Assembly (NCBI GenBank): GCA_003221035.1
Contig: QHUB01000019.1
Span: 2,418 to 66,417, forward strand
DNA length: 64,000 bases
Origin: Gemmatimonadota bacterium
Lineage (GTDB): Bacteria; Gemmatimonadota; Gemmatimonadetes; Gemmatimonadales; GWC2-71-9
Direction: 5' to 3'
Under the pieces are notes generated by a model. It did no database searches, was not told the origin of the DNA, and worked only from the letters and a program-made list of their open reading frames with translations. Made by a program: the position numbers and the translations under genes. Below, in pieces: positions 15,898 through 58,146 of the stretch (within the stretch, counting starts at the first letter, position 1; the number at the start of each line of letters is the position of its first letter).

Positions 15898-15929
15898 CTG
15901 ACTAGAAATCGACGGTCAAGCGGCAAATG

Positions 15930-35154: not shown

Positions 35155-36155
35155 ACATCACGTTCTGCGTTGTTCGCACCACGGAACGCCTCGACCGTTT
35201 TCTCGCCGATCAGCTCGCTTTTTCCCGCACTCAAGCAGCACGCCTCATCGCCGACAAGCGGGTGACTGCACGCGGCAAGGCGTTGCGGGCGTCCGCCATC
35301 CTCGAACCGGGCACGGAAGTCACCGTCGAAATCCCCGACGCACACCCGCCGCGCAGCTACGCGCCGGCCCACGCCGTTCTGCATTTCGTCTACGAGGACG
35401 AGCATCTCGCCGTGCTCGACAAGCCCGCGGGCCTCGTCGTGCACCCGGGGCCGGGTCATTGGGATGATACGCTCGTCAACGTGCTCGCCGGTCGCGGGAC
35501 CGAATTGTCGAGCGGCTCGAGCGAGGGACGGCCGGGCATCGTCCACCGGCTCGATCGCGATACCTCCGGCCTGCTCGTCGTCGCCAAGAGCGATCTCGCG
35601 CACCGGCGGCTCGCGACCGCCATCGAAAAGCGGCAGGTGAAACGCGTCTACGCGGCGCTCGTGTGGGGCCATTTGCGCAAGAGTCCCGTGGACATCGAAG
35701 CCCCGATCGCCCGGCACCCGAAAGAGCGCAAGCGGATGACCGTCGCGGAAGGCGGCAGGCATGCCGTCACGCACGCCGGCGTCGTCGCGCGCTTCGCGCA
35801 CGCCGACTTGCTGCGCGTTCGACTCGGCACCGGCCGCACCCATCAGATTCGCGTGCATCTGGCGCACGTTGGATGTCCAATCGTCGGCGACCGCGAATAT
35901 GCGTTTGGGGGGAGCCGGCGCGTCACACCGTCGGGGCGCGCCGAAGCTGAGCGGCTCGAAGCGCTCGCGCCGCGGCAGTTGCTGCACGCCGCCGCGCTCT
36001 CGTTTGCGCATCCGGTCAGCGGCGCGCCGCTCCAGCTCGTGTCGGAATGGCCGGCGGACTTGCGTCCCGCGCTGGCGGAAGCGGCCGGAGACGCAGATTT
36101 GCTTGCTCAGGTTAACCCCTTGCAGTATCTTGGCTTCTTCGCATCCGATGATTGA
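35151..36155 (+). CDS. rluD: RluA-family 23S rRNA pseudouridine synthase (RluD-like)
   Basis: S4 domain (RLDRFLA) and catalytic HRLDRDTSGLLVVAK. The TTG at 35151 overlaps the lspA stop, so the start is uncertain. Confidence 0.88.
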   Translation: MNITFCVVRTTERLDRFLADQLAFSRTQAARLIADKRVTARGKALRASAILEPGTEVTVEIPDAHPPRSYAPAHAVLHFVYEDEHLAVLDKPAGLVVHPGPGHWDDTLVNVLAGRGTELSSGSSEGRPGIVHRLDRDTSGLLVVAKSDLAHRRLATAIEKRQVKRVYAALVWGHLRKSPVDIEAPIARHPKERKRMTVAEGGRHAVTHAGVVARFAHADLLRVRLGTGRTHQIRVHLAHVGCPIVGDREYAFGGSRRVTPSGRAEAERLEALAPRQLLHAAALSFAHPVSGAPLQLVSEWPADLRPALAEAAGDADLLAQVNPLQYLGFFASDD

Positions 36156-36684
36156 CGGAAGCCTCGTCTCCGCCCGCCTCCTGGTGTTCCGCGTCGGGAC
36201 ACTGGCGTGGGCAGCCGAGGTGGATCAAGTGCGGGAGATTCTCCCGCGCCTCCCAACGACGCGTATCCCGGGCGCGCCCCCGGTCGTGGCGGGGCTCGTG
36301 AATGTCCGCGGCACACTGGTGACGGTCGTGGAAGGCTGGCGTGCGCTTGCCCCCACCGAGACCTCCCAGCCAAGACCGCCCGAAGACGCGGGTTCGACAC
36401 TCATCCTCGAGGTCGCGTCCGGCAACGGCACGAAGGACGGCAGCGGCAAGAAGCTGGTCGGCTTTACGGTGGACGAAGTGATCGACATGGTAGCGGTGGG
36501 TGACACGACGCTCGAAGATCGTGGTGGTCTTCCCGGCGTGGATCCCACGCTGGTACGCGCCGTCGGGCGACGTAACCGGCCAGGCGGGGCGGGCGGAGGG
36601 GCCGGGGGGGGCGGGGAAAGCGGCAAGGATCTGTTCATTGTGCTGGACCTCGCCGCGCTGCTGGGGCCGGTTCTGACTACTTAA
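36148..36684 (+). CDS. cheW: CheW-like coupling protein with Gly-rich insertion
   Basis: LLVFRVGTLAWAAEVDQVREILP...PPVVAGLVNVRGTLVTVV. The ATG lies 8 nt inside the rluD 3' end. Confidence 0.85.
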   Translation: MIDGSLVSARLLVFRVGTLAWAAEVDQVREILPRLPTTRIPGAPPVVAGLVNVRGTLVTVVEGWRALAPTETSQPRPPEDAGSTLILEVASGNGTKDGSGKKLVGFTVDEVIDMVAVGDTTLEDRGGLPGVDPTLVRAVGRRNRPGGAGGGAGGGGESGKDLFIVLDLAALLGPVLTT

Positions 36685-36694
36685 GGAGCGAGCA

Positions 36695-37057
36695 GTGAGC
36701 CATACGGTGCTGGTGTGTGACGATGCCATCTTCATGCGCACGATGATTACCGACATCCTGGCGCAAGCGGGATTCGAAGTCGTCGGCGAGGCGGAGACCG
36801 GCACGCAGGCCGTCGAAAAATATCGCCAGCTCAAGCCGGACCTCGTCACCATGGACATCGTGATGCCGGACATGGGTGGCATCGACGCCGTCCGCGAGAT
36901 CGTGAAGCAGGATCCCGACGCGAAAATCCTGATGTGCAGCGCCATGGGCCAGCAGGCGTTGGTCGTCGAGGCGATCCAGGCGGGTGCCAAGGATTTTGTG
37001 GTGAAGCCGTTCCAGCCGTCGCGGGTGCTGGAAGCGGTGCAGCGGGTCTTGGGCTAA
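36695..37057 (+). CDS. cheY: chemotaxis response regulator CheY
   Basis: Single REC domain with acidic pocket VCDDA, phospho-site VTMDIVMP, and DFVVKPF. Confidence 0.93.
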   Translation: MSHTVLVCDDAIFMRTMITDILAQAGFEVVGEAETGTQAVEKYRQLKPDLVTMDIVMPDMGGIDAVREIVKQDPDAKILMCSAMGQQALVVEAIQAGAKDFVVKPFQPSRVLEAVQRVLG

Positions 37058-39043
37058 ATGGACCTTTCGCAGTACGCCGAGCTGTTCCTGGCCGAGAGCC
37101 GCGAGCACTTGAGCGCCTGCAATCAGTTGTTGCTCGAGTGGGAGCGGAACCCGGCAGCGCTCCAGCCGGTCGGCGGGCTGTTCCGCGCCGTCCATACGAT
37201 CAAGGGCATGGCCGCGACCATGGGCTACGGCCGCGTCGCCGACCTCGCGCATCGCATGGAGAATCTCCTCGACCAGCTGCGCCGCGGCGGCAAGACTCCC
37301 AGCGACGAAATCATCCAACTGCTCTTCCGGGCGACCGACGCGCTCGAGAAATCGGTGACGGTGGCCGTCGCGGGGCGCGAGCGTGATGCCGACCTCAGCG
37401 TGCTCGAGGCCATCGACGATGCGGCGCTGCAGTTCAGGCCGGCGGCGCAGCCCAGTGGGCTGGCGCGTCTGCGGCCGGAGCCTGCGCCCGCTCCCGCCGA
37501 CGAGCCGAGTTCATCGGCGCCGCAGGTTTCCGCCGATGCCACGAAGTCGGGACCGACACGAGCCGTGCACGTGGTGATTCGACCGGAGGCGCCGTTGAAG
37601 GGCGGCCGGGCGATGCTCGTGCTGAAAAAGGCTGAGCGCTTCGGCGCCGTGCACCGGCTGCAGCCGCCGTCCGCGGCGTTCGAATCCGACGATTTCGACG
37701 GCCGGCTGGAGTTCGAGCTCGAGACGTCCGCCGCCCCGAGCGACATCGAACAGGCGCTGCGAGGCGCGGGCGACGTCGAGCGGGTCGTGGTCGGGGCTGC
37801 CGCCATCGACGAGGCTGTGATCACCACGGGCGAGATCCCGGTGACCGGTGCGCCGAATCCCGCGGGAGGAGCCGGCGGTGGCGCACGCAGTCGCCACATC
37901 CGCGTCGACCTGCGGCGGCTCGATACGCTGATGGACCTCATTGGTGAGCTCGTGACCGAGCGCGGCCGTCTCAACGATCTGGCGGCTCGCTGGATCGGCC
38001 GCGGTGGCGATCCCGAGATCGACGACGTCGCGATTCAGATCTCGCGGCTTTCCGCCGACCTGCAAAACGAAATCATCCAGGCGCGCATGACCCCGGTGTG
38101 GCAGGTGTTCGATCGGTTCCCCCGGCTCGTGCGCGATGTCGGGCGACAGCTCGGCAAGCAGGTGTCCTTCCGCGTCGAAGGGAAGGAGATCGAGCTCGAT
38201 CGCGAGATCCTCGACGAGCTCGGCGATCCACTCGTGCACTTGCTCCGCAACGCGGTCGATCACGGCATCGAGCCGCCGGCCGAGCGCAAGCGGCTGAAAA
38301 AGAATCCCGAGGGGGAGATCGTGCTCGCGGCCGTACGCGAGCGGTCCAGCGTCGCGATCAGCATCTCGGATGACGGCCGCGGCATCGACCGTGCGAAGAT
38401 TCTGGAGAAGGCGAAGCGCGAGGGCGTGGTCGGACCGCACGTCGAATCGCTCTCGGACGATCAGTTGCTGCGCGTGCTGGCGCGCCCGGGATTCTCGACC
38501 GCGGAGGCCGTGACCAGCGTATCCGGGCGCGGCGTCGGGATCGACGTCGCCATGACGCGCATCCGGGCGCTCGGCGGCTCGATCGAGATTCGCACCCAGG
38601 CGGGGAAGGGCACCGCGTTCGTGCTCCGGCTGCCCGTCACGCTCGCGATCGTGCGCGCGCTGATCGCGGCGGTGGGACAGGAGCGCTACGCGTTGCCGCT
38701 CACCTACGTGGCGGAAACGGTGGAGTACGGGACGACTCCGACGACGACGATGGAAGGGCGCGATGCGATCGTGCTGCGCGACCGCGTCGTGCCCCTCGTG
38801 GATCTTCGGAAGCTTCTGGGAACAAACGGCGCCGCCGCTTCGCCCCCCCCTCGCCGCCCCGTCATTGTCTTGGAGATGGGTGAGCGACGCGTGGGGATCG
38901 TCGTGGACGGGATGCTGAGCCAGCAGGAGATCGTCGTGAAGGGGTTCGATGCCCCTCAGGGCACATTGCCGGTGTTCAGTGGAGCCACCATCATGGGCGA
39001 TGGCGTGCCCGCGCTGATCCTGGATGCGGCGGGACTGGTTTAG
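37058..39043 (+). CDS. cheA: chemotaxis histidine kinase CheA
   Basis: Hpt P1 (FRAVHTIKGMAATMG), dimerisation, HATPase (HLLRNAVDHGIE, DDGRGID, GRGVGID) and a C-terminal CheW-like P5. Confidence 0.96.
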   Translation: MDLSQYAELFLAESREHLSACNQLLLEWERNPAALQPVGGLFRAVHTIKGMAATMGYGRVADLAHRMENLLDQLRRGGKTPSDEIIQLLFRATDALEKSVTVAVAGRERDADLSVLEAIDDAALQFRPAAQPSGLARLRPEPAPAPADEPSSSAPQVSADATKSGPTRAVHVVIRPEAPLKGGRAMLVLKKAERFGAVHRLQPPSAAFESDDFDGRLEFELETSAAPSDIEQALRGAGDVERVVVGAAAIDEAVITTGEIPVTGAPNPAGGAGGGARSRHIRVDLRRLDTLMDLIGELVTERGRLNDLAARWIGRGGDPEIDDVAIQISRLSADLQNEIIQARMTPVWQVFDRFPRLVRDVGRQLGKQVSFRVEGKEIELDREILDELGDPLVHLLRNAVDHGIEPPAERKRLKKNPEGEIVLAAVRERSSVAISISDDGRGIDRAKILEKAKREGVVGPHVESLSDDQLLRVLARPGFSTAEAVTSVSGRGVGIDVAMTRIRALGGSIEIRTQAGKGTAFVLRLPVTLAIVRALIAAVGQERYALPLTYVAETVEYGTTPTTTMEGRDAIVLRDRVVPLVDLRKLLGTNGAAASPPPRRPVIVLEMGERRVGIVVDGMLSQQEIVVKGFDAPQGTLPVFSGATIMGDGVPALILDAAGLV

Positions 39044-39049
39044 GACTCG

Positions 39050-39129
39050 GATTTCACACCCTGAAGGGTGTGCTCGGCACATCGTTGTCCTTAAGGACAA
39101 TGCTGGTCGAGCCTACGCTTTAGCGTGGG
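39050..39129. repeat. REP-like structured intergenic repeat, copy B (three adjacent hairpins) between cheA and cheC
   Basis: cacaccc-tgaa-gggtgtg (39055-39072), ttgtcc-ttaa-ggacaa (39085-39100) and cctacgc-ttta-gcgtggg (39112-39129). The first two are homologous to 547-595. Confidence 0.7.
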
Positions 39130-39135
39130 GGGACA

Positions 39136-39753
39136 ATGGAAGACGTCCGTGATCTGAAGGCGCTGCAGCTCGACGCGCTCAAGGAAGTCGCCAACATCGG
39201 CGCGGGCCACGCCGCGACGGCGCTGTCGCAGCTCACGCACCGGCGCATCATGATTTCGGTGCCCGAGATCAACATCGCTCGCCTCGAAGAGGTGCCCGGG
39301 CTGATCGGCGATTCCCAGGAAGTCGTCGCCGCGGTCCTCATGCACATGCTGGGCGATCTCACGGGCCGCACGCTGCTGCTGTTTCCGGAGCCGGTGGCGC
39401 GGCAGCTCTGCGACATGCTGCTGAAACGTCCGCTCGGCACGACCACGTCGTTCGAAACGATCGAGCAGTCGTGTCTCAAGGAAGCGGGCAACATCCTCTC
39501 GGGCGCCTACATGAACGCGTTGTCGGAGTTCATGGGGATGTTGCTGCTGCCGTCGGTTCCCAGCCTGGTCGTGGATCTTTCGGCCGCCGTGCTCACGACG
39601 ACGTATCTGAATTTCGGGCACGATCGCGATTTCGTGTTTTGCGTCGAGACGGAGTTCAGCATCGATGCGCGGGACGGTCTGCGCGGCCATTTCCTGCTGT
39701 TGCCCGACCTGGCGTCTCTCAAAGCGATCTTCGACGCCATCCGGCTGAGCTGA
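39136..39753 (+). CDS. cheC: CheC-family CheY-P phosphatase
   Basis: Two D/S-x3-E-x2-N-x22-P sites: DALKEVANIGAGHAATALSQLTHRRIMISVP and SCLKEAGNILSGAYMNALSEFMGMLLLPSVP. Confidence 0.88.
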   Translation: MEDVRDLKALQLDALKEVANIGAGHAATALSQLTHRRIMISVPEINIARLEEVPGLIGDSQEVVAAVLMHMLGDLTGRTLLLFPEPVARQLCDMLLKRPLGTTTSFETIEQSCLKEAGNILSGAYMNALSEFMGMLLLPSVPSLVVDLSAAVLTTTYLNFGHDRDFVFCVETEFSIDARDGLRGHFLLLPDLASLKAIFDAIRLS

Positions 39754-39755
39754 GC

Positions 39756-42533
39756 GTGACGGCGCCTCAAGCGACGCCTTCCCCGTCCGCCTCGAGCTCC
39801 TCCGCAGGCCCGTCCCCTCCGCCGTCTCCGCCGGTTTCTGAACGTGATCTCGCGGTCCTGCGCTCGTTCGCGCGCCGGATCGATCCGTCGGATGCCGGCG
39901 CGCACAACAACCTCGGCGTGCTGTACTATCAGAAGGGTCTGGTCCCCGAGGCGATCGAGCAGTTCACGCGCGCGTTGGAGCTCGATCCCCGCATGCAGGT
40001 CGCGCAGCGCAACCTCGAGATTGCCTACCATAACACCGGCTATTACGACGCCCGCGTCGCCGAGCTGCAGGAGAAGCTGCGGGGCGCGCCCGACCAGCGG
40101 GACGCGCGCTGGGAGCTGGGTCGTACCTACGCGATTCTTGGCGCGTTCGAGGAGGCGGTCGCGGAATTCGAAGAGCTGCTCGCCCACAAGCCCAAGGATG
40201 TCGCCGCGGTCATCCAGCTCGGGCTCGCCGAGAAAGCGCGCGGCCGTCTCGAGGTCGCGACGGAGTGGTTCGCGCGCGCGGTCGAGCAGGAGCCGGATTC
40301 GTCCGTCGTGCATTTCTACCTGGGCGAGGTCTATTACAATCGCGGGCTGAACGAGCCGGCGCTCACGGCGCTCGAGCGCGCCGTCTCGCTCAATCCTGAC
40401 AACGCCAACGCGCACTATCTGATGGCGTTCGTCCTGGGCGACATGGGCCGGCACCAGGACGCGCGCGCCGCGTCGAAGCGCGCGATCCAGCTCAACCCGC
40501 CGCTCGCGCGCGCGCAGACGAATCTGTCGCTCGAGCGCTATCGCGCCGAGCGCCAGACGGCCGAGCACCGGATCCGCGAGCAGCCCGCCCCGGAAGTCGC
40601 CGAAGGCAGCGAACTGGCGCACTGCAACCTCGGTCTCGCGTTCCGGCAGAAGGGCTATTACACGGAGGCGTTACGCGAGTATCGGCTCGCGATCGAGCGC
40701 GGCGAAGACCGCCGCCTGGTCCGGCAGGCGATGGCGGAGGTCCATCTCCTCAAGCGCGATTTCGGCGACGCGCTCGAGCTGTACGAGTCGCTGATCCACG
40801 AGACCCCGGAGTCGCCGAAGTTATGGAACGAGCGCGGCGTCGTGCTGCATCAGGCGGGCCGGACGGCGGAGGCGCTGACGTCGTACCGCCAGGCGACGGA
40901 GGTGGACGCGCGCTACGCGCTGGCCTGGAACAACGTCGGCGTCGTGCTCGCGCATCACGGCAATACCGACGACGCCATCGAGGCCTTCCGCAAGGCGCTG
41001 CAGCTGTCGCCCCAGTTCGTCGGCGCGCGACTCAATCTCGCCTTGCTGCTCGCGCACCTGCGGCGTTTCCAGCTCGCGCTCGAGGCATATCGCCAGGTGC
41101 TCGCCGATCAGGCCAACTCCGCCCCGGCGTGGAACGGCGTGGGACTCGTGCTCGTGGAGCTCAAGCGATTTCCCGACGCGCGGAACGCGTTCGTGCGCGC
41201 GGTCGAAGCGGATCCGCAGAATGCGGGTGCGCACTACAACCTCAGCTTCGCGCTGTCCAACCTGGGCGATTACGACGGCGCGCTGCGTGCGACCAAGCGC
41301 GCGCTCGAGCTCGATCCGTACTATGTGTCGCAGAAGTTCGCGCTCGCGATCGATCTCCAGTATGAGACCGTCGCGATCGGCATCATTCCCGAGATTTCGG
41401 CCGACGTCCCCGCCGAGAATCTCGGCGGAGAATTCGCGTTCGACCAGCGGCTGCTCGACAACATTTTCCACGAGCTGCAGCCGGCCGCCACGGGCGTGGC
41501 GCAACAGCCCGCCGCCGCCGGCCTCGCGAAAAAAGCCGACGACCCGCTGGCGCTGGCGCGCGATTACGAGAGCAAGGGGATGATGGATCTCGCCGTGGCG
41601 GAGGCGATGCGCGCAGTCCAACGCGGCGCGGACAAGGGTCTGGCCGCCACGCTGATCGGCGACATCTACGCGCGCCGCGGACTGCACGGCGAAGCGCTGG
41701 AGCGCTACCGCGACGCGCGCACGCTGGACGCCGCGAACGCGGCCGCCGCGCTCGGCGAGGTGCAGAGTCTGCTGGGGTTGCACCGCGGGGCCGAGGCGCT
41801 TCCCATTGCCGAGGACCTGGTCACCAGGGCGCCCGAGCATGTTGAGGTCCTGGTTGCGGCGGCCAAGGCGCGGGCCGCCACGGGCGATGCGGCGGGAGCA
41901 CTGACGGCGCTGCGCCAGGCGCAGACGCGCGCGCCGGCCCGCGCCGATCTGCACAAGCTGCAGGGCGACATTGCCCTCAAAGTGGGCGACCGCCAGGGTG
42001 CTCGCACGGCCTACCGCGGCGCGCTCGACCTGGACAAGGGGTTCGTGCAGGTGTGGCTCGACCTGGGCCGACTCCACGAACAGGACGAAGAATGGCCGGA
42101 CGCGCAACGCGCGTACGAGGAGGCGCTCGAGGCGCTGCCGACGTTCCACGAAGCGGCGCTCGCGCTGTCCGACCTGTTGCGCCGCACCGGAGGGCTTCGC
42201 GCCGCTGTCGTGCGGCTTGCCGGGATGCTGGAGCAGGACCCGTACGACATGGACGCGCTGCTGCTGCTCGGCCGCACGCTCCTCGACGACAAGCGCAACG
42301 CGGAAGGGCTCGAAGTGTTCAGGCGCGCGCTCAAGTTCGATCCCGATCACACCGGCGCGCTGTTTTATCTCGGCGCGACCCTCGCGCGGCTGCAGCGCTA
42401 CGCCGAGGCGGTGGATGCGTGGGAGCGCGTGACGCGGATCGACCCCGGCGGGCCGTTCGCGCAGCGCGCGCGCGTGCATGCGCGCACCGCCGTCGACCTG
42501 CAGCACATCTTCTCAACCTCGGACGCGGCGTAG
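39756..42533 (+). CDS. large tetratricopeptide-repeat protein (~925 aa)
   Basis: Pro/Ser-rich N-terminus, then many TPR units (AHNNLGVLYYQKGL..., AWNNVGVVLAHHGN..., AHYNLSFALSNLGDY...). GTG 3 nt after the cheC stop. Confidence 0.85.
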   Translation: MTAPQATPSPSASSSSAGPSPPPSPPVSERDLAVLRSFARRIDPSDAGAHNNLGVLYYQKGLVPEAIEQFTRALELDPRMQVAQRNLEIAYHNTGYYDARVAELQEKLRGAPDQRDARWELGRTYAILGAFEEAVAEFEELLAHKPKDVAAVIQLGLAEKARGRLEVATEWFARAVEQEPDSSVVHFYLGEVYYNRGLNEPALTALERAVSLNPDNANAHYLMAFVLGDMGRHQDARAASKRAIQLNPPLARAQTNLSLERYRAERQTAEHRIREQPAPEVAEGSELAHCNLGLAFRQKGYYTEALREYRLAIERGEDRRLVRQAMAEVHLLKRDFGDALELYESLIHETPESPKLWNERGVVLHQAGRTAEALTSYRQATEVDARYALAWNNVGVVLAHHGNTDDAIEAFRKALQLSPQFVGARLNLALLLAHLRRFQLALEAYRQVLADQANSAPAWNGVGLVLVELKRFPDARNAFVRAVEADPQNAGAHYNLSFALSNLGDYDGALRATKRALELDPYYVSQKFALAIDLQYETVAIGIIPEISADVPAENLGGEFAFDQRLLDNIFHELQPAATGVAQQPAAAGLAKKADDPLALARDYESKGMMDLAVAEAMRAVQRGADKGLAATLIGDIYARRGLHGEALERYRDARTLDAANAAAALGEVQSLLGLHRGAEALPIAEDLVTRAPEHVEVLVAAAKARAATGDAAGALTALRQAQTRAPARADLHKLQGDIALKVGDRQGARTAYRGALDLDKGFVQVWLDLGRLHEQDEEWPDAQRAYEEALEALPTFHEAALALSDLLRRTGGLRAAVVRLAGMLEQDPYDMDALLLLGRTLLDDKRNAEGLEVFRRALKFDPDHTGALFYLGATLARLQRYAEAVDAWERVTRIDPGGPFAQRARVHARTAVDLQHIFSTSDAA

Positions 42534-42536
42534 CGC

Positions 42537-45340: not shown

Positions 45341-45347
45341 GCGGCGC

Positions 45348-45950
45348 ATGTCCCTGGTCAACTTCACGGCCCGCGAGATCACGTGCAAAATCGTCTATTA
45401 CGGACCGGGGCGGTCCGGCAAGACGACCAATCTCCATTACATCTACGGACGTGTGCCGGAGACGCGGCGCGGGCGCATGGTCTCGCTCGCGACGCAAACC
45501 GACCGCACGCTGTTTTTCGATTTCCTGCCGATCGACCTCGGCCAGATCTCGGGGTTCGCGACGCGATTTCAGCTCTACACGGTGCCGGGCCAGGTCTACT
45601 ACAACGCCACCCGCCGGCTCGTGCTGCAGGGCGCCGATGGCGTCGTCTTTGTGGGCGACAGCCAGGCGCGGCAGCTCGACGAGAACATCGAGAGTCTCCA
45701 GAATCTCCAAAGCAATCTGCTGGAGCACGGCGTGGACGTGCGCGCGATGCCGCTGGTCATGCAGTACAACAAGCAGGACCTGCCCCCCGAGCTGATCTTG
45801 ACTCCTCCCGAGCTCGATGACGCGCTCAACTTTCGGAGCGTACCGAGCTTTCCGGCGGATGCGCTCCACGGCAGAGGCGTGTTCGAAACGCTCAAGTCGG
45901 TATCGGAGTTAGTCCTCAAGAAGCTCGCGGCGGGGAGTCCCGCATCATGA
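45348..45950 (+). CDS. mglA: Ras-like small GTPase MglA
   Basis: Near-colinear with M. xanthus MglA as I recall it: [21 protein letters not shown] (P-loop), [27 protein letters not shown]. Confidence 0.92.
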
Positions 45951-47899
45951 CCAGCTCGCTGAATCCCCGCTTTACGTTCGAGACCTTCGTGGTGGGTGCG
46001 GCCAATCGTCTCGCCGTCACGGCGGGACGAACCGTGGCCGAGAATCCCGGGTCCGCCTACAACCCCCTTTTCATTTATAGTGGCTCCGGGTTAGGGAAGA
46101 CGCACGTGCTCATGGCGATCGGTCATGCGGCCAAGACGATCGCCTCGCAGCTCAACATCGAATACCTGACCCTGGATGAGTACGTCGAGGCCTTTCACGC
46201 GGCCATCGCCGCGGGTCAGGGCGACGCTTTCCGCCGCCGCTTTCAGAACGTCGACGTGCTGCTCGTAGACGACGTTCAGTTCCTCACGAATCGCAAGGAG
46301 ATGCAGGCCGAATTGCTGCGGCTGACCGAGGCGCTGCAGCAGTCTGGTCATCAGATCGTCCTCGCCAGCGACCGGCCGCCCGCGGAGATCGCCGATTTGG
46401 ACGAGCGGTTGATCTCGCGATTCTCCGGCGGGCTCGTGGTCGACATGGGCATCCCCGACTACGAGACGCGCGTCGCGATTCTGCGCCGCAAGGCCGAGGA
46501 GCGCGGCAGCAAGTTCCAACCCGGCGTGCTCGAGGCGGTCGCGAAAGTCGAATACCCAAACGTCCGCGAGCTCATGGGCGCACTCAATCGCTTGATCGCG
46601 TTTCAGGCGGTCAACGACATGCCGATCAACGAGGAGACGGTTCGCAAGGTGTTGGGCGTCCCGACCGCCGGTTCACCGACCGCCGGTTCATCGACCGTCG
46701 CCTCACCTACCGTCGGTTCACCCGACGAGTTCTCTCAGTTCTTGAGCGATGTCACCGTCACCGTCGGCAAGGCTGTCGAAGCCTGGAGAGCGCGCGTCGC
46801 CGAGGCGGTCATGCGCTGGGAGGGCGAAGGCTACCGGACCGGCCGGCTCGAAAAGCTGCTCGAGCAGGAGACACCCGCCGCGGTGGACGAAGCGATCGCG
46901 GCGTACGTGCAGGATGTCGAGCGGCTCAAGACGCTCGAGGCGGAAGTCGCGGTGCTCGATCCGCAGGCTGCCGGCGAAAAGGTGTTTCGCGATCCCGATC
47001 ATATGGAGGCGGCCGAAGCAGCGGCCGCGAAGGTGCGGGAGGGCGCCGCGCCGCCGCCCGCACCGTCGGCCGCGTTCCCGCTCGAGACCTATTGTGCCGG
47101 CGCATCCAATGAGGTCGCGTTGAACGCGGCGCGCGACGTGATCGCGAAGCCCGGCAAGAAATACAATCCGCTCGTCATCGTGGGTCGCAGCGGCCTCGGT
47201 AAAACGCATCTCCTCAATGCCATCGGCGTCGAGCTGGCCAGGAAGAAGCACGCGGTCGTCGCCTGCCTGTCGACGCAGCAGTTCGTGGACGAGCTGATTG
47301 CGGCGATCGACGGCAACCGCGTGGACTGGTGGCGTGCGCGCTACCGTCGTGCGACGGCGCTCTTGCTCGATGACATCCAGCTGCTCGCGGGGAAAGAGCG
47401 GACGCAGGAAGAGCTGTTCAACCTGTTCAATCACCTCGTGGACGCCGACCGCCAGCTCATCTTCACGGCGCCGGCGCATCCCAACACGCTCGAGGGAATC
47501 GAGGAGCGCATCGTCTCGCGGCTCGAGGGCGGTCTGGTCGCCGAGATCGCGGAACCGGACAAGGATCTGCGTCGTGGCATGCTGGAGCGGCTGCTCACGC
47601 AGCACCGCGTACCCGTGGAGCCCGCGCTCCTCGATTATCTGGCCGACCGCCCGATCGACTCCGTGCGAAACTTGACCGGCATCGTGCAACGCATCATCGA
47701 AGCCGCGGCGGCACAGGACGCGCCGGTGACGGCGGGTCTGGCGCGCGAAGTGCTGGAAGGCGCCCCGGTGCCGCGGCGCACGACCGGTCTGCGCACGAGC
47801 GGGATTGTGGTGTCGAGCGCGGGGGGCGTCCGCAGCCGGGAGAAGATGGTCTGGGACTGGCCCACATCGGGAGACCGCGTGATCGAGGATCTGCGCTAA
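45947..47899 (+). CDS. tandem double DnaA/Hda-type AAA+ ATPase protein lacking DnaA domains I and IV
   Basis: Module 1 (~aa 7-236): [49 protein letters not shown]. Module 2 (~aa 386-606): [49 protein letters not shown]. No HTH domain IV. ATGA overlap with mglA. Confidence 0.85.
46661..46720 (+). repeat. 4 x 15-nt tandem repeat inside the double-AAA+ gene linker
   Basis: ccgaccgccggttca, ccgaccgccggttca, tcgaccgtcgcctca, cctaccgtcggttca. These encode [20 protein letters not shown]. Confidence 0.9.
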
Positions 47900-49516
47900 A
47901 TGGCGATCAAAGGCTCGCTCAAGGAAGCGTCCCTCCCCGACGTCCTGCAGCTGCTCGCGCTGGGGCAGAAGACCGGCTGCCTGTCGATCGCCGACCGCTC
48001 GAACTTCGGCTACATCTACTTCGACAAGGGCCGGATCTCGTACGCCTCGATCGTCAATCGCCGCGACCGCCTCGGCGACATCCTCGTCAAGCACGAGAAG
48101 ATCACGCAGGAGCAGCTCGACGCCGCGATCCATCGCCAGTCCAAGGAGCGCGACAAGAAGCTCGGCGAGATCCTGGTCGTACAGAGTGTGCTCACGCAGC
48201 AGGAGCTCGAGCGGTACATGCGGATGCAGATCGAGGAGTCGGTCTACTATCTGTTCACCTGGACGCAGGGGACGTTCAATTTCGAGTCCGACGTCCGCCC
48301 GGAGCAGCAGGACTTTCTCGTCTCCATCAATCCCGAGTCGCTGCTGCTGGAAGGGGCGCGGCGCGTGGACGAGTGGGGGCTGATCGAAAAGAAGATCCCG
48401 TCGTTCGACCTGATCTTTCTCGTGGATCGCGATCGCCTCGCGATCAGCGACGCCACGCTGACCGAGGTCCAGGATCGGCTCCTCTCGCTGCTCGACGGCT
48501 CGCGCGACGTCAACCAGGTGATCGAAGACTCCGGGCTGGGCGAATTCGAAGTCGGCAAGGCGCTCTACGGTCTCGTCACCGCCGGATTTCTGCATCGGGC
48601 GGGTCGCACGATCAGCGCCGAAGACGTCAAGATGACCGATGCGCGCGTGGAGGAGCACCGCAACCTCGGCATCGCGTTCTACAAGACCGGGATGCTGGAC
48701 GAAGCGGCGCGCGAATTCCGGCGCGTGGCGGAGCTGCGCGGCACCGATGCCAACGCGCATTTTTTCATCGGGCTGGTGGCGCTCAAACAGGCGCGCTGGC
48801 GCGAGGCGATGGAAGCGCTGCGGCTCGCCGCCGAGAAGGGCGGCTCCCGTCCCGCGGTGCTCCACAATCTCGGCCTCGCGTTCGAGCAGCTCGGCCGACT
48901 GGAGGATGCCGAGGCCGCCTACGCGGAAGCGGCGTCGCGGGCGAAGACCGATCCCCGAGTCTACCTCGGATGGGGCATCGTCGCGCTCAAGCAGGGCGAT
49001 CATCGCGGCGCGGCCGGTCGGCTCGACCGCGCGAAGGAGCTGTTCGCCGCGCACGTCCCGCCGATCTGGTTCTGGGCGCGCGCGCTCGCCGCGGCGGCCG
49101 CCGGCGATTTCGAGACCGCCGAGCAGGTGGCCGGCCAGGCCGTCGAAGCGCATCCGCAACACGGCGTGCTGCGCAACAACCTGGCGGTGCTGCACGAGCT
49201 GGCCGGAGACCTGACCAAGGCCGAGGAGCTGGCGCGCGCGGCGCTGCGGGACGAGCCCTCCCTGCCGCAGCTGTCCAAGAATCTCGGTGACCTCGCCTAC
49301 CGCAGCTCGCGCTACGACGAGGCATGGGATCTGTACCAGCGCGCGATCGATCTCGCCCCGGAGCTCGGCGACGACGTCTACTTCAAGCTCGGCAACATCG
49401 CGTACAAGCGAAACGACCGCGAGCAGGCGAGCGAGCTGTGGCGGCGCGCGCTGGAGCTCAATCCCAAACACGAGCTCGTCAAGGCAAATCTGGATACCCT
49501 GAGCAGTCTGTCGTGA
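47900..49516 (+). CDS. PATAN/DUF4388 domain protein with C-terminal TPR (second paralogue)
   Basis: GSLKEASLPDVLQLLALGQKTGCLSIAD...GYIYFDKGRISYA, with helical insertion LGEILVVQSVLTQQELERY. Long TPR tail. The ATG directly follows the upstream stop. Confidence 0.82.
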   Translation: MAIKGSLKEASLPDVLQLLALGQKTGCLSIADRSNFGYIYFDKGRISYASIVNRRDRLGDILVKHEKITQEQLDAAIHRQSKERDKKLGEILVVQSVLTQQELERYMRMQIEESVYYLFTWTQGTFNFESDVRPEQQDFLVSINPESLLLEGARRVDEWGLIEKKIPSFDLIFLVDRDRLAISDATLTEVQDRLLSLLDGSRDVNQVIEDSGLGEFEVGKALYGLVTAGFLHRAGRTISAEDVKMTDARVEEHRNLGIAFYKTGMLDEAAREFRRVAELRGTDANAHFFIGLVALKQARWREAMEALRLAAEKGGSRPAVLHNLGLAFEQLGRLEDAEAAYAEAASRAKTDPRVYLGWGIVALKQGDHRGAAGRLDRAKELFAAHVPPIWFWARALAAAAAGDFETAEQVAGQAVEAHPQHGVLRNNLAVLHELAGDLTKAEELARAALRDEPSLPQLSKNLGDLAYRSSRYDEAWDLYQRAIDLAPELGDDVYFKLGNIAYKRNDREQASELWRRALELNPKHELVKANLDTLSSLS

Positions 49517-50286
49517 CCGATGAGGGGGCCTTCGAAGCCCTGACGCAGAAGATTTCGCGCGAGCGGGGCATGAGCTGCGGGTCGTACAAGAACAAGTGCC
49601 TGAAGCGCCGCATCGCGGTGCGGATGCGGGCGCGCGCCATCCACACCTACGACGATTACGCCAGACTCCTCGATCGCGACCCGCACGAGTACCAGGCGCT
49701 GCTCGATGCGCTGACCATCAACGTCACCAAGTTCTATCGCAATCCAGAGACGTGGGATGCGCTGCGGCCGTATCTCGCGGAGCTCTGGACGGTGCGGCGC
49801 GGCGCGCTGCGGATCTGGTCGGCGGGGTGCGCGTCAGGCGAGGAGCCGTACACGATCGCCGTGCTGCTCGCCGCCGCCGGAGCGCAGGGCACGATCGACG
49901 CGACCGACATCGACCGGCTGAGTCTCGAGCGGACCCGCCAGGCGCAGTATCCCGATGCCGCGTTCACCGAGATGCCTGCGGATCTGCGGCGACGCTACTT
50001 CCGCGACGGCCAACCGGCGCAGGAGGTCCGGGCGCTCGTGCACGTCCTGGCGCACGACCTCACCCGCGAGCCGCCGCCCCGCACGACGTACGACCTGATC
50101 GTGTGCCGCAACGTGGTGATCTACTTCGAGCGCTCGGCGCAGGAGCGCCTGTTTCAGGTCTTTGTCGACGCGCTGCGACCCGGCGGCGTGCTGGTCCTCG
50201 GAAAAGTGGAGACGCTGTTCGGGCCGGCGCGCGAGCGCCTGACGCTCGCCGATCCGCGCGAGCGGATTTACCGCAAGCCCGCGTGA
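49513..50286 (+). CDS. cheR: chemotaxis protein methyltransferase CheR
   Basis: INVTKFYRNPETW and SAM-binding IWSAGCASGEEPYTIA ... DLIVCRNVVIYF. The GTG overlaps the upstream stop. Confidence 0.9.
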   Translation: MTDEGAFEALTQKISRERGMSCGSYKNKCLKRRIAVRMRARAIHTYDDYARLLDRDPHEYQALLDALTINVTKFYRNPETWDALRPYLAELWTVRRGALRIWSAGCASGEEPYTIAVLLAAAGAQGTIDATDIDRLSLERTRQAQYPDAAFTEMPADLRRRYFRDGQPAQEVRALVHVLAHDLTREPPPRTTYDLIVCRNVVIYFERSAQERLFQVFVDALRPGGVLVLGKVETLFGPARERLTLADPRERIYRKPA

Positions 50287-50765
50287 AGGAAATCATCGTC
50301 AAAGTCGCGGACTGGGCAGCCGAGCGAGGCGATGGCGTCCTGGTGACGCTGGGTCTGGGCTCCTGCGTCGCCATCATGCTGCACGATCTGGAGACGCAGA
50401 CCGGCGGCATGGCGCACGTGCTGCTGCCGTCCACGAGCCTTGCCCGCGACATCACGAACCGCGCGAAGTTTCCCGATACCGCCGTGCCGCTGCTCGTCGA
50501 GCGACTCAGCAGACTGGGCGCGGATCCGCGCCGGCTGGTCGCCAAACTGGCGGGCGGCGCGCGCATGTTCAGTCAGCTCGTCACCCCCGGCACGATCCAG
50601 ATGGGCGAGCGCAATGTCCTGGCATGCCGCAGCGCGCTGCGCGCGGCGGCCATCCCCATTGTCCGGGAATCCGTCGGTGGCGAGCGTGGCCGCAGCGTGC
50701 GCTTCCATCTGAGCGACGGTCGCGTCGAGATCCGTTCGGTCGGAACGAATGTCGATGTCATCTGA
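50283..50765 (+). CDS. cheD: chemoreceptor glutamine deamidase CheD
   Basis: [16 protein letters not shown]...GGMAHVLLP...GERNV. The GTG overlaps the cheR stop. Confidence 0.9.
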
Positions 50766-51858
50766 TCAACCCGCCCGGCCCACCGTGCTCGTCGCCGACG
50801 ACAGCGCGCTGATGCGGCGCGTGCTCGCCGATGTGCTGGGCGGCGGCGACGCGAACGACGGTGCGTTTCGCGTCGTGGCGACCGCCCGCGATGGACTCGA
50901 CGCGATTCGCAAGGTCCATCAGCACAACCCGGACGTCGTCACACTCGATCTCGAGATGCCTCAGCTCGACGGGCTTGGCGCCATCGGATACATCATGTCC
51001 GAGGCGCCGCGGCCGATCGTGGTGGTGAGTGCGCACGCCGGGCCGGGGACACAGGCGGCGATCCGCGCGCTCGAGCTCGGTGCAGTCGAAATCGTCGCGA
51101 AGCCGCCGCTGCCCGCGGAGGGATTTGGCCATCCGCGCGCCGCACTCGAGGCGCTGGCGCCCGCGCTGATCGCCGCCGTGCGCCGCGCGCTCGCGGCGGA
51201 TGTGTCCCACGTGAAGGTGCTGGCGCGGCCCCCGGCGCCGGTCGTCCATCCACCGGATCTGGGGCTGCGCGGGCGCGCGTGGTTCGCCGTTGGAATCGCC
51301 GCATCCACCGGCGGCCCGCGTGCGCTCGCGGACGTCGTGCCGCGCCTCCCCACCGGTCGCCGCGCCGCGGTTCTGGTCGTGCAACACATGCCGCCCAAGT
51401 TCACGCGCAGTCTCGCGGAGCGGCTCGATTCGATGAGTCACCTGCGCGTCGTCGAGGCGGACGACGGGGCACCGATCGTCGCCGACACGGCGTACGTGGC
51501 CCCGGGCGATTATCATATGCGTGTGCGCTCGGCTCCCGATGGTCCCGTGATCGCGCTCGACCAATCAGCGCCGATTTGGGGTGTGCGGCCGGCGGCCGAT
51601 CCGCTGTTCCGCTCCATCGCGGAGGCGTACGGCGCCCGGAGCGTGGGCGTCGTCCTCACCGGGATGGGCCGAGACGGCGCCGACGGCTTGCGCGCGATCA
51701 AAGACGCGGGCGGCAGTGGCTTCGCCCAAGACCGTGAAACCGCCGTCATTTCCGGCATGCCGGCCGCGGCGGTGCAGGCGGGAGGCGTCGATGCCGTGTT
51801 GCCGCTCGGCCAGATCGCCGAGCGCGTGACCGCCGAGCTGGCGCGAAAGGGACGATGA
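50749..51858 (+). CDS. cheB: protein-glutamate methylesterase/response regulator CheB
   Basis: REC domain ([25 protein letters not shown]) plus methylesterase domain ([21 protein letters not shown]). Confidence 0.93.
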
Positions 51859-52277
51859 AGGGCTACTTGCTCGTGCGGTCCGAGGGAAAGGCCTACGGTT
51901 TGCCGGTCGCGAGTGTGCTGGAAGTGGGCGATACGACCGAAGTCTTCCCCATTCCGCGCAAGCTTCCCGCGGTCCGCGGATTGACGCCGCTGCGGGGCCG
52001 TCTGGTGCCGCTCATTCATCTGGGTGCGCTGCTCACGGGTCGCGAAGCCCCGGCGCTGTCGTCGGGATCGCGGACCGTCGTGCTCGTGCAACTCGGAGGA
52101 GTTACGCGCGACCGCCAGGCCGCGTTCGAGGTGGACGACGCCGATGCCGTCGTGCGCGAGCAGCCGCTGCCGGTGCCGCGCGGGCATTCACTGCCATGGG
52201 CCGCGGGCGTGGCCGAGCGGGAGGGCGGGCTGGTCCCGATCCTCGATCTCGATGCGCTGGGCGATCGGATCGTATGA
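51855..52277 (+). CDS. cheW: CheW-like coupling protein
   Basis: [21 protein letters not shown]...[25 protein letters not shown] overlap with cheB. Confidence 0.82.
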
Positions 52278-52747
52278 GCACCATCACGAGCGCCGGCGGC
52301 GACGACATCCAGCTGGTCACGTTCAAGGTGGCCGGTCAGGATTTCGCCTTCAACATCTTTCAGGTGGAGCGCATTCTGCGGTATGAGGCACCGGCGCCGC
52401 TGCCCAAGGCGCCGGAGTTTCTGGCAGGGGTGTTGCAATACCAGGGCAATGCCGTGCCCCTCGTCGATCTGCGCAAGCGGCTCGGTGCCGCGGCGCCGCT
52501 GCGCGAAGACACCCGCACCGTCATCCTCGAGTTCGACGGCGGCAAGATCGGCGTGATCGTCGATGCGGTGACGGAAGTGATGCAGGTCGCGGCCCAGGCG
52601 GTGACCCCTCCGCCCGGCATCGTGCGCGGGCTCGCCGCGGAATACATCGCGGGCCTGGTTGTGCAGAATGGCCGGACCATCGTCGTGCTGAACACGAACA
52701 AGCTGCTCAACTCGACCGAGAAGCTGGCTCTGCAGGAAGCGACATGA
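52274..52747 (+). CDS. cheW: CheW-like coupling protein
   Basis: QLVTFKVAGQDFAFNIFQVERILR...FLAGVLQYQGNAVPLVDLRKRLG...IGVIVDAVTEV. The ATG overlaps the upstream stop. Confidence 0.88.
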   Translation: MSTITSAGGDDIQLVTFKVAGQDFAFNIFQVERILRYEAPAPLPKAPEFLAGVLQYQGNAVPLVDLRKRLGAAAPLREDTRTVILEFDGGKIGVIVDAVTEVMQVAAQAVTPPPGIVRGLAAEYIAGLVVQNGRTIVVLNTNKLLNSTEKLALQEAT

Positions 52748-53610
52748 CGACCGAATCACCCGTCGGACTGCTGCGCCGGGAGTACGACGCGATCGCCCGG
52801 CAGCTCGACGGCGCGGCCGGCAATGCCGAGCGCGAAGCCGCCAAGCGCGAGATCATCGCGTTCTTCAAGAAGGTCGACGGGCAGCTCGGTGAGCTGACGC
52901 AGTTGAAGGAAGACATCCGCCAGCTGGTCGATCGCTACAAGCAGCTCACCGCCGATACGAAGGGGGCTGCCGCGCCGGAGTTCACGGGGCAACGCCCGGT
53001 CCTGCACGCCGATCACATCGGCGCGACCACGTTCATCGAAAAGGGCTGGAGCCTCATCTCGCTCGGCGATCATGCGGGCGCCATTCAGGCGCTGACCAAA
53101 GCGCTGCAACTGTCGCCCGGCGACACGCAAGCGGAGTCGCTGCTCGGCTGGGCGCAGATGCTGCACGAGGACTACGACGACGCACTCGGCACCTTTCAGA
53201 AAGTTCTGATGAAGGAGCCGGCGAATTCCCTCGCCCGGATCAACGTGGGCTACATCTGTCTCAAGAAACGGATCTTCGGCGAAGCGATCGAGCATCTCTC
53301 CAAGGCGATCCGGCTGGACAACGACAAGAAGGCGACGTTGTATGCGCACTTTTATCTCGGACTCGTGTACCTGCAGCGCGAGATGTATGAGGACGCGGAG
53401 ACCTTCTTCCAGAAAACGCTCAAGTTGGGGCCGAACCTGATCGAGGCGTATTACGAGCTGGGGCGCGCGCACTGGTACGCCGGCGATCAGGACAAGGCCA
53501 AAGGCACGTGGCAGGATGGATTCAAGGCCAACAAGTTCAATCCCTGGGGCAGGAAGTGTCAGGAAATGCTGGAGCTTGTCGCTAAGGGCGAGGAGCCGCC
53601 GCGAGAATAA
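52744..53610 (+). CDS. coiled-coil + TPR protein (last gene of the Che/Mgl array)
   Basis: N-terminal coiled coil followed by TPRs (GDHAGAIQALTKALQLSP, ARINVGYICLKK..., AYYELGRAHWYAGD). ATGA overlap with cheW. Confidence 0.8.
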   Translation: MTTESPVGLLRREYDAIARQLDGAAGNAEREAAKREIIAFFKKVDGQLGELTQLKEDIRQLVDRYKQLTADTKGAAAPEFTGQRPVLHADHIGATTFIEKGWSLISLGDHAGAIQALTKALQLSPGDTQAESLLGWAQMLHEDYDDALGTFQKVLMKEPANSLARINVGYICLKKRIFGEAIEHLSKAIRLDNDKKATLYAHFYLGLVYLQREMYEDAETFFQKTLKLGPNLIEAYYELGRAHWYAGDQDKAKGTWQDGFKANKFNPWGRKCQEMLELVAKGEEPPRE

Positions 53611-54515: not shown

Positions 54516-54529
54516 ACTCCAGCCCCGAA

Positions 54530-56814: not shown

Positions 56815-56837
56815 CCTGAGTACCCCGACGACTTGAA

Positions 56838-58145: not shown

Positions 58146-58146
58146 C

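Follow-up and report, generated by a model that had tools for sequence, protein, structure and literature searches.

Chemosensory genes, an MglA/MglB module and a tandem DnaA-type AAA+ gene lie in one conserved array in Gemmatimonadota

How does a chemosensory kinase pathway reach the MglA/MglB polarity switch? The coupling has so far been worked out in part; the components in Myxococcus are encoded far apart, and its adaptors are specific to the lineage. The Frz pathway acts on MglA/MglB from a separate locus, and in M. xanthus and Bdellovibrio mglA does not lie near the genes of its partners (PMC4316618). Here we describe a stretch of 64,000 nucleotides from a Gemmatimonadota bacterium (contig QHUB01000019.1, positions 2,418 to 66,417; the window) in which che genes and mglA/mglB are interleaved in one array of 18 genes on the + strand (36148-53610). 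A preliminary description of this DNA had proposed a dedicated chemosensory-to-GTPase machine. The adjacency behind that proposal is real, overlapping and conserved deep within Gemmatimonadota, while the Che part turned out to be F1-like and not Frz-like. In our judgement the scales are even on whether phospho-CheY and cyclic di-GMP (c-di-GMP) feed a scaffold of TPR, PATAN, Roadblock and AAA+ proteins that sets the MglA switch for the control of a polar motility organelle.

All 18 genes were present as + strand open reading frames (ORFs), in the order and with the domains that had been claimed (Pfam): cheW, cheY, cheA, cheC, a large TPR gene, a PATAN-TPR gene, a TPR-Roadblock gene, a small Roadblock gene, mglB, mglA, an AAA+ gene, a second PATAN-TPR gene, cheR, cheD, cheB, two further cheW genes and a terminal TPR gene. 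The G+C content of the window is 64-71%, so that spurious ORFs are common. Ten stop/start overlaps of 4, 8 or 17 nt were found at exactly the positions reported before, and the other junctions measure 0-10 nt except for a gap of 92 nt between cheA and cheC, again in agreement with the preliminary description. The tight coupling of the genes suggests that they are co-transcribed.

To examine conservation of the array, relatives were gathered by anchoring on the AAA+ gene, since it lies near the middle and flanks of 10 kb span the whole array. A scan of a genome collection gave at least 80 loci; of these L001-L009 were used, and 71 others (L010-L080) are true dnaA loci, which one of the two search patterns (GKTHL...) also matches, and were ignored. 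Metagenomes were scanned with the linker of the AAA+ protein as query, which retrieved 80 soil contigs; all belong to close relatives, 82-96% identical over the part of the linker that matched, and they added neither architectures nor phyla to those already seen. L082-L088 stem from look-ups of distant members of the AAA+ family, with about 10 kb of flank examined per locus. The related loci come from independent assemblies (NCBI, ENA, JGI and Logan). Near-identical copies of the AAA+ protein occur in soil metagenomes, and the named ones belong to metagenome-assembled genomes (MAGs) of Gemmatimonadales.

The same gene order was found in every related locus examined, and an adjacency unique to this strain can be set aside. 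The full order of 18 genes is identical in L001, L007, L009 and L081, with AAA+ proteins that are 44-90% identical to that of the window and, in divergent Gemmatimonadota genomes, only 44-56%. The lowest of these values belongs to L009, a Gemmatimonadota chromosome (CP070666.1) with an rluD gene upstream of the array. For L081 (AAA+ protein about 55% identical), independent gene calls with precomputed Pfam assignments agree with the window in gene content and in the overlaps at the junctions. Colinearity also holds for six shorter genome contigs over the part of the array that each one covers. The metagenome contigs are colinear without exception (80/80), 12 of them with all 18 genes; 12 apparent deviations among these contigs were contig-end truncations or split alignments.

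Constraint is distributed unevenly over the array. CheY (71-98% identical to the window protein) and MglA (74-94%) stand out clearly as the most constrained products, compared with 42-77% for CheA and 35-90% for the AAA+ protein. Among relatives with a cheA-bearing array, CheY reaches 86-98% as against the range just given for CheA. The terminal TPR protein (52744-53610, +; 288 aa; TPR models), in which an N-terminal part without TPR match is followed by TPRs, is also unusually conserved, with 64-72% identity in L007, L009, L081, L082 and L083, where the AAA+ protein is at 35-56%, and 46% in L085.

Reduced arrays act as a natural deletion series, with variants that keep only cheY and cheC, variants without MglA and a minimal core. 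A 1.03-Mb Gemmatimonadota contig (L085) has the full order minus the last two cheW genes. A 4.59-Mb genome (L083) lacks the same two genes and cheB as well, and its CheA has no P2 domain. On a 104-kb contig (L082) in the slot between ileS-rluD and mraW-ftsI, the array contains no cheA, cheW, cheR, cheD or cheB; a phospho-competent cheY and cheC are still there, immediately ahead of the genes for TPR, PATAN, TPR-Roadblock, Roadblock, MglB, MglA, AAA+, PATAN and TPR proteins. L084 lies in another genomic context (GC 49%) and comprises cheW, cheY, cheA, a gene for a STAND-like ATPase, a gene for a CheW-domain protein, cheC, TPR, PATAN and AAA+, with no MglA, MglB or Roadblock gene. The two additional proteins of L084, encoded between cheA and cheC (4035-5923 of that locus), are a STAND/AAA_22-type ATPase of 272 aa and a protein of 344 aa with a C-terminal CheW domain; a neighbour gene of L084 carries a type IX secretion sorting tail. 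At the far end of the series, a marine-type Gemmatimonadetes MAG (L086) has only a large TPR protein plus AAA+, and L087 and L088, in the slot between rluD and the peptidase gene, have only a Roadblock/MglB-like protein, AAA+ and PATAN-TPR.

The constant element of the locus is the AAA+ gene with a large TPR and/or a PATAN partner. Even L086, without che or mgl genes, has a relative of the large TPR gene immediately upstream of its AAA+ gene, and the MglB-like gene precedes the AAA+ gene in the minimal locus L088. In the slot between rluD and the Peptidase_MA_2 gene, the second PATAN-TPR gene always follows the AAA+ gene, directly so in L081-L083, L085, L087 and L088. The MglA/B and Che genes appear as modules gained around or lost from this element, with their relative order always kept. 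The evolutionary core is thus not the pairing of Che and MglA on which the preliminary description had centred; that place has to be given to AAA+, PATAN-TPR and the MglB-like Roadblock protein, which are found without MglA or che genes in some lineages. A neighbour-joining tree of the AAA+ modules, which has no support values and used a crude slicing of the C-modules, placed the N-modules of the Che-less and MglA-less forms nearest to true DnaA. This hints at accretion rather than loss, with the minimal forms basal, and is not relied on here.

Two features of the series bear on the link between the Che genes and the GTPase module. First, it is the central block, and not CheA, that CheY and CheC stay with, and cheC always adjoins the large TPR gene, including in L082 and L084. 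The retention of cheY and cheC in L082 thus gives independent support for a link from CheY to the GTPase module. Secondly, the gene set of L084 means that Che genes and the AAA+/PATAN core occur together in two differently composed arrangements.

Which type of chemosensory pathway does the array encode? CheC plus CheD are the hallmark of class F1 (PMC10746217), and both are present alongside CheA, CheW, CheY, CheB and CheR (Pfam). CheA (37058-39043, +) has the domains P1 (Hpt), P2, P3 (dimerisation), P4 (HATPase) and P5 (CheW) and no receiver domain (Pfam). It scored 449 bits with the NCBIfam model CheA_Halo and 333 bits with the E. coli-type model, both below the equivalog cut-offs, and its PDB matches include an E. 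coli-length CheA (6s1k) and the CheA of T. maritima (1b3q). CheC (39136-39753, +), a predicted CheY-P phosphatase of the CheC/CheX family, matches Pfam CheC in two stretches (3.3e-22) and NCBIfam CheC_Thtogales (1.3e-47, below cut-off); CheD (50283-50765, +), predicted receptor deamidase and CheC partner, matches Pfam CheD (1.2e-28) and NCBIfam CheD_Thtga (1.9e-41, below cut-off). CheY (36695-37057, +) is a single-domain response regulator (Pfam Response_reg, 2e-31) with intact phospho-acceptor residues, and it matched T. maritima CheY (PDB 1TMY) at 1.5e-51 with about 65-68% identity (~65% in a position-by-position comparison). For CheA, CheC, CheD and CheY alike, the best NCBIfam matches are Thermotoga or haloarchaeal models and stay below the equivalog cut-offs.

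The remaining Che proteins are a receptor methyltransferase, CheR, without TPR extension (49513-50286, +; Pfam CheR, 8.1e-44, plus CheR_N), a receiver-methylesterase, CheB (50749-51858, +; Pfam CheB_methylest, 2.4e-64, plus Response_reg; NCBIfam PRK00742, 341.9 bits with a cut-off of 293), and three CheW proteins. The first of these (36148-36684, +; 178 aa; Pfam CheW, 9.4e-19) has a Gly-rich insert and is encoded by the least conserved Che gene across the loci (32-67% identity); the second (51855-52277, +; 5.2e-18) and the third (52274-52747, +; 4.6e-33), the most canonical of the three, are those absent from L083 and L085. Altogether, the Che part looks F1-type, judged by the gene set and the best family matches. 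The cognate receptors of F1 systems are of the 44H class; genes for chemoreceptors (methyl-accepting chemotaxis proteins, MCPs) were found neither among the ORFs scanned across the 64-kb window nor in any of the ~10-kb flanks of the relatives examined.

The GTPase of the array is, by its sequence, a bona fide group-1 MglA (45348-45950, +). It is a Ras-like small GTPase and matched M. xanthus MglA (5ymx) over its full length at 5.9e-73 and 3t12 at 3.3e-68. A start at ATG 45348 is likelier than one at TTG 45330, because the resulting N-terminus, MSLVNF..., lines up with M. xanthus MglA from residue 1. The motifs are those of M. xanthus MglA: the P-loop, TDRTLFF, TVPGQ and NKQD, the intrinsic Arg, and Thr in place of Asp in the switch-II TxxGQ. 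Group-1 MglA proteins have a tandem cognate mglB, and here an MglB homologue (44864-45340, +) ends 7 nt upstream of mglA. This Roadblock-fold protein matched the MglB structures 6h5b (2.2e-8) and, from T. thermophilus, 3t1r (8e-5); its Pfam Robl_LC7 score is 23.8 bits (cut-off 23), and the NCBIfam MglB model was matched at 4.2e-7, below cut-off. From its homology to solved MglB structures, it is predicted to act as GTPase-activating protein (GAP) of MglA. Two more Roadblock proteins are encoded upstream. The small one (44520-44867, +; 115 aa) matches Pfam Robl_LC7 (3.7e-10) and the Robl_LC7 protein 7f8m of the PDB (1.1e-6). The other is a TPR-Roadblock fusion (43681-44523, +; 280 aa) with TPR models plus Robl_LC7 at 7.3e-4, below the Pfam cut-off; in its L085 orthologue Robl_LC7 is recorded.

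The AAA+ gene (45947-47899, +) encodes a tandem DnaA-domain-III ATPase of 650 aa, with Pfam Bac_DnaA matched twice (1.2e-103). In the AlphaFold2 (AF2) model (pLDDT 88) two modules are joined by three long helices (residues 261-366), and this linker is conserved. Foldseek aligned the AAA+ module with domain III of B. subtilis DnaA (8bv3) at a target TM-score of 0.95, and the N-terminal module is 42-44% identical to that domain in the structure alignment. Walker A and B are conserved in both modules, sensor motifs are present, and the sequence (R/K)EKMVWxWP is conserved at the very C-terminus. Neither the Pfam matches nor the AF2 model show domains I, II and IV of DnaA, which leaves, of the four domains of the initiator, only domain III, twice. 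Nor does the protein fit Hda: it has two modules instead of one, and TIGR03420 scored 177.6, below the cut-off of 194.8. A motif search of the array proteins found no Hda-type clamp-binding motif (QLxLF-type).

An exhaustive search recovered ~650-aa members of this AAA+ family down to 34% identity, and every member with an organism name is from Gemmatimonadota. Many of the family members from metagenomes and MAGs are labelled 'chromosomal replication initiator protein DnaA'. This label is almost certainly wrong and looks like a systematic misannotation, since domains I and IV are absent and the genes are encoded among signalling genes. Thousands of database proteins called 'chromosomal replication initiator DnaA' are thereby flagged as probable signalling ATPases.

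Between cheC and the Roadblock genes lies the gene for the large TPR protein (39756-42533, +; 925 aa; many TPR models), which is cytoplasmic, has a Ser/Pro-rich N-terminus and is a candidate scaffold or effector. By analogy only, it might be likened to SgmX, a 14-TPR effector of MglA (PMC11580455). Two further TPR proteins carry a PATAN (DUF4388) domain: PATAN-1 (42537-43688, +; Pfam DUF4388, 1.6e-32), which contains an MshEN-like insert, and PATAN-2 (47900-49516, +; 1.1e-38), in which this insert is in tandem. MshEN is defined by two tandem 24-residue motifs, RLGxx(L/V/I)(L/V/I)xxG(L/V/I)(L/V/I)xxxxLxxxLxxQ, with a short spacer (PMC5013675), and such tandem motifs are found in the PATAN proteins. 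With the c-di-GMP motif model NF053729 (cut-off 38), PATAN-2 scored 50.2 bits; its motifs are RLGDILVKHEKITQEQLDAAIHRQ and KLGEILVVQSVLTQQELERYMRMQ, separated by the spacer SKERDK (6 residues). PATAN-1 scored 38.9 bits, with motif II (RLGEILVSLGVITQREVERQVRFQ) present and motif I degenerate (PLG...).

When 15 PATAN domains of these loci were aligned, Gly and Gln of the motifs proved invariant or nearly so. In PATAN-2 of the window, E and K replace the expected G and hydrophobic residue of motif I, and motif I of PATAN-1 deviates too; in each case 1-2 key positions are concerned. The PATAN inserts are predicted to bind c-di-GMP, and c-di-GMP is likely to be a second input, one that had gone unnoticed in the preliminary description. 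In Synechocystis PATAN is an output domain; it binds to PilB1 as well as PilC, and by itself it suffices for a reversal of taxis (bioRxiv 10.1101/2021.06.11.447907).

How might these parts work together? We propose that the array is a conserved, operon-like unit of Gemmatimonadota for one composite signalling machine. Its F1-type core (CheA, three CheW, CheR, CheB and CheD) would signal from receptors encoded elsewhere; phospho-CheY would be the output of this core, and CheC would reset it. Phospho-CheY may then dock on a cytoplasmic scaffold, possibly besides an action on the flagellar motor. The parts of this scaffold would be the large TPR protein, the two PATAN-TPR proteins, MglB with the two other Roadblock proteins and the AAA+ protein with its two DnaA-type modules, and c-di-GMP would join as second input through the MshEN-like inserts. 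The scaffold would control the GTP/GDP state or the location of MglA, with MglB as GAP and the two other Roadblock proteins as candidate guanine nucleotide exchange factors (GEFs) or scaffold subunits. MglA-GTP, finally, would determine at which place a polar organelle is active; this organelle may be type IV pili or a single polar flagellum as in cultured Gemmatimonas.

We think of a composite machine because the genes are tightly packed in a conserved order, because of the L082 and L084 variants, the constraint on CheY and MglA, the likeness of MglA and MglB to their characterised counterparts and the c-di-GMP motifs, and because there are published precedents. The docking of CheY-P, the binding of c-di-GMP, what the AAA+ protein does and which organelle is the output are those points that we infer from gene linkage, motifs and analogy.

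A bolder form of this proposal makes the tandem DnaA-domain-III protein the hub. It would be an ATP-driven switch or scaffold that works with the MglB-like Roadblock protein and a c-di-GMP-binding PATAN-TPR protein, and it would define a hitherto unrecognised, Gemmatimonadota-specific class of signalling machines, to which most soil lineages would have recruited MglA and the full F1 pathway; phospho-CheY, c-di-GMP, ATP and GTP would be integrated on a single complex to set polarity. We regard this as possible though somewhat unlikely. If true, CheY would reach MglA by a route that needs no receiver adaptor of the RomR or FrzZ type, and the ATPase fold of DnaA would have a use outside replication.

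Several observations weigh against a flow of signal from CheY to MglA through the scaffold. Known adaptors between the two, RomR-like, FrzZ-like or other, were not found in the array, and no pilus or flagellar genes were found among the ORFs scanned in the window. Both PATAN proteins consist of PATAN and TPR and have no Response_reg match, so they are not of the PatA type; as no receiver domain is fused to them, any phospho-control of these proteins would come in trans. The core occurs without MglA and Che in L087 and L088, and Che genes occur with AAA+ and without MglA in L084, so that MglA is not obligatory for the function of the core. The same-strand run starts well upstream of the array: an rluD-like pseudouridine-synthase gene ends at 36155 and overlaps the first cheW by 8 nt, hence the co-directional run does not begin at 36148. 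Finally, the CheY stretch AGAKDF[VI]VKPFQPSRV, which we take to be the FliM-binding face, is nearly unchanged compared with Thermotoga CheY. Since CheY is Thermotoga-like and the Che genes best match F1 models, the flagellar switch is the simplest target of CheY-P, and CheY may act mainly on the flagellar motor.

This leads to the main rival explanation, in which an ordinary F1 flagellar Che pathway, with CheY-P acting on FliM, is merely co-transcribed with an independent polarity and c-di-GMP module of eight genes that accreted at the same slot; co-expression would then reflect a shared motility regulon and stoichiometry, with no signal passing from CheY to MglA. F1 is the class usually tied to flagella. 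The identity of CheY to its Thermotoga counterpart (about 65-68%, with the AGAKDF[VI]VKPFQPSRV stretch kept), the F1 hallmarks CheC and CheD (PMC10746217) together with the Thermotoga and haloarchaeal family matches, and the single polar flagellum of cultured Gemmatimonas (PMC9862903) all fit this explanation. So do the minimal loci L087 and L088, which have the MglB-like, AAA+ and PATAN-TPR genes without che or mglA, and the gain and loss of che genes in blocks around a constant centre. Against mere co-transcription speak L082, where cheY and cheC stay beside the MglA block in an array without the other genes of the pathway, and L084, where cheA and cheC are joined to TPR-PATAN-AAA+ in a different genomic context. 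Moreover, the central block splits the che genes identically in every full array, with stop/start overlaps at both borders. A motif search found no FliM-like CheY-docking peptide in the array proteins, which is neutral here because FliM lies elsewhere. All in all, we consider the explanation somewhat unlikely, and it is the one that the composite machine has to be measured against first.

A different role is suggested by the AAA+ protein itself. It could co-oligomerise with DnaA or bind DNA and so couple c-di-GMP, polarity and chemosensory state to replication initiation, division or budding, in which case motility would be secondary. The likeness to DnaA domain III (42-44% identity and a target TM-score of 0.95 for the N-terminal module, Walker A and B in both modules), the fact that AAA+ and not MglA is the invariant gene of the locus, and the conserved slot between yggS-divIVA-ileS-lspA-rluD and mraW-ftsI-murE-mraY would all be in line with such a coupling. 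Against it, DnaA domains I and IV, required for helicase loading and DNA-box binding, are absent, and the search for a clamp-binding Hda-type motif gave nothing. The constant partners of the AAA+ protein are PATAN, TPR and Roadblock proteins, which belong to signalling and scaffolding and not to replication; the genomic context differs in L084 and L086, and a neighbourhood of division and cell-wall genes may simply reflect a stable housekeeping region. A cell-cycle function as the primary role therefore seems improbable to us.

That the array is a fortuitous run of signalling genes without functional connection is scarcely credible: the + strand reading throughout from ~24.7 kb to the window end does make same-strand order alone weak evidence, but the order is invariant where most proteins are only 35-60% identical, the stop/start overlaps are conserved, genes are lost in modules without reshuffling, and the independent assemblies argue against chimeras.

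The slot that the array occupies is fixed, with yggS, divIVA, a gene of the purine-nucleoside-phosphorylase family, ileS, a dksA/traR-type zinc-finger gene, lspA and rluD on one side (29104-36155) and mraW, ftsL, ftsI, murE and mraY, the head of a division/cell-wall cluster, on the other (56885-64000). This slot between the ileS-rluD and mraW-ftsI sides is common to the window, L081-L083, L085, L087 and L088. Further upstream are the housekeeping genes lon, eno, ftsH and folP. The upstream order presumably resembles the tail of the Firmicutes division/cell-wall cluster.

Downstream of the array, after a gap of 74 nt, a Peptidase_MA_2 gene (53685-54515, +; Pfam, 9.6e-9) encodes a probable associate. 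This protein carries the zinc-binding motif HELAH, and at its C-terminus a hydrophobic helix precedes a basic stretch, which points to anchoring in the membrane. This gene lies downstream of the array or of the minimal module in ten loci (L001, L002, L007, L009, L081-L083, L085, L087 and L088), and its product may be part of the system; it could serve as a membrane anchor or in processing, for instance. It is followed by tRNA-Val(TAC) (54738-54811), a gene for a secreted TPR protein of 610 aa (54848-56680) and tRNA-Asp(GTC) (56741-56816), the two tRNA genes flanking the latter, and then by mraW. The single sigma-70-like promoter match of the region (54490-54518) lies ahead of tRNA-Val, and a transcript of the array, if any, probably ends before it. 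In the scan for promoters and terminators, terminator-like sites were fewer than in shuffled sequences, and the scan is uninformative for this phylum.

The 92-nt spacer between cheA and cheC (39044-39135) had been singled out as the only structured gap of the array. It does fold strongly (minimum free energy -45 kcal/mol, z = -4.86). Its first two hairpins recur almost exactly at 548-600: a double-hairpin element of ~52 nt (TTCACACCCTRAAGGGTGTGCTCGGC...GTCCTWAAGGAC) has copies at 548-600 and 39052-39103, both intergenic, with ~45/52 identical positions. Most relatives, among them one whose array is 90% identical, have only 11-29 nt between cheA and cheC, and a spacer of ~96-98 nt was seen in only a few metagenome contigs. 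As there is a second copy elsewhere and the element is absent from most relatives, we rejected the spacer as a conserved regulatory element of the array and regard it as a lineage-specific repeat insertion. The element looks like a small dispersed palindromic repeat of this lineage, comparable to repetitive extragenic palindromes or miniature inverted-repeat transposable elements (REP/MITE-like).

Elsewhere in the window, an ORF at 671-1450 has a weak match to the family of photosynthetic reaction-centre cytochrome c subunits (PF02276, 2.4e-11) plus TPR; some Gemmatimonadota are phototrophic. A tRNA-Met(CAT) gene lies at 15823-15898. Two long ORFs on the - strand with high G+C at third codon positions have no Pfam match, one at 9589-10701 and one at 61877-62722; the latter, which lies opposite the Mur-ligase region of the + strand, is probably spurious.

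The array matters beyond the single locus. Found across a phylum that is abundant in soil, little studied and represented by few cultured members, it places a whole parts list together and offers a compact, testable model of coupling from Che to MglA. It also extends the MshEN c-di-GMP motif to PATAN-TPR proteins. Neither the gene order of the array, as a known chemosensory class or otherwise, nor the tandem DnaA-type protein is described in the literature searched, which left many subscription papers outside, so that this absence is not proof. Linkage of PATAN and MglA/MglB genes has been noted before, according to the account of Makarova (2006) given in PMC4316618. The neighbourhoods of group-1 mglA genes vary widely and occasionally include PATAN genes (Wuichet and Sogaard-Andersen, PMC4316618); Table S2 of that paper lists GAU_1409 of G. 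aurantiaca as 'PATAN>MglA>-PATAN>', and no Che term appears anywhere in the supplement.

How does the array compare with known systems? One parallel is Frz with MglA/MglB(/RomR) of M. xanthus. Frz is recognised by a CheA-receiver fusion (FrzE), an in-cluster receptor (FrzCD), a CheR-TPR fusion (FrzF) and a dual-receiver protein (FrzZ). Guzzo et al. (PMC4546325), where part of these signatures is also given, proposed for Deltaproteobacteria that a chemosensory system gained MglAB by recruitment; the text searched contains no statement on genetic linkage. Shared with M. xanthus are the presence in one organism of a CheA pathway, a group-1 MglA and the Roadblock GAP MglB, the TPR-rich partners (SgmX in M. 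xanthus) and the expected output, control of a polar motility organelle (PMC4316618, PMC4546325, PMC11580455). M. xanthus MglA-GTP recruits PilB through the 14-TPR SgmX, among whose candidate partners are PATAN proteins (PMC11580455). The signatures of Frz are missing from the array: its CheA has no Response_reg domain, there is no MCP gene, its CheR has no TPR, and receivers are found only in CheY and CheB (Pfam). Instead, CheC and CheD are present. In the window the two modules are interleaved in one array, whereas mglA of M. xanthus is away from the genes of its partners (PMC4316618). Receiver proteins of the RomR, FrzZ and FrzS types are absent from the array, which has as extras two more Roadblock proteins, two PATAN-MshEN-TPR proteins and the tandem DnaA-type AAA+ protein.

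With the F1 systems of Thermotoga maritima, Bacillus subtilis and haloarchaea the array shares the set of CheA, CheW, CheY, CheB, CheR, CheC and CheD. It differs from them in having three CheW genes and no receptor gene, and in the eight non-Che genes that are inserted between cheC and cheR. The PATAN proteins recall the PatA-type (PATAN-REC) regulators of the cyanobacterial Tax/Pix systems, in that a PATAN domain is encoded inside a che-type cluster; in the window this domain is fused to TPRs and not to a receiver. Their inserts resemble the MshEN domain of Vibrio cholerae MshE in the tandem 24-mers, which are present in PATAN-2, partial in PATAN-1 and kept in relatives. The motifs of MshE are at the N-terminus of a secretion/pilus ATPase, whereas those of the window sit as a helical insert within the PATAN domain, and the spacer of PATAN-2 has 6 residues rather than 5. 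Each half of the AAA+ protein, finally, is a DnaA domain III by sequence and predicted fold, as in the DnaA/Hda family; in contrast to that family, two modules are present in one chain and the genomic partners are signalling proteins. Thus, the parts and their general logic (Che, MglA/B, PATAN and TPR) are known. What is new is their fusion into one conserved array, the F1 flavour of its Che genes, the PATAN-MshEN-TPR proteins and the tandem DnaA-type AAA+ protein as a candidate hub.

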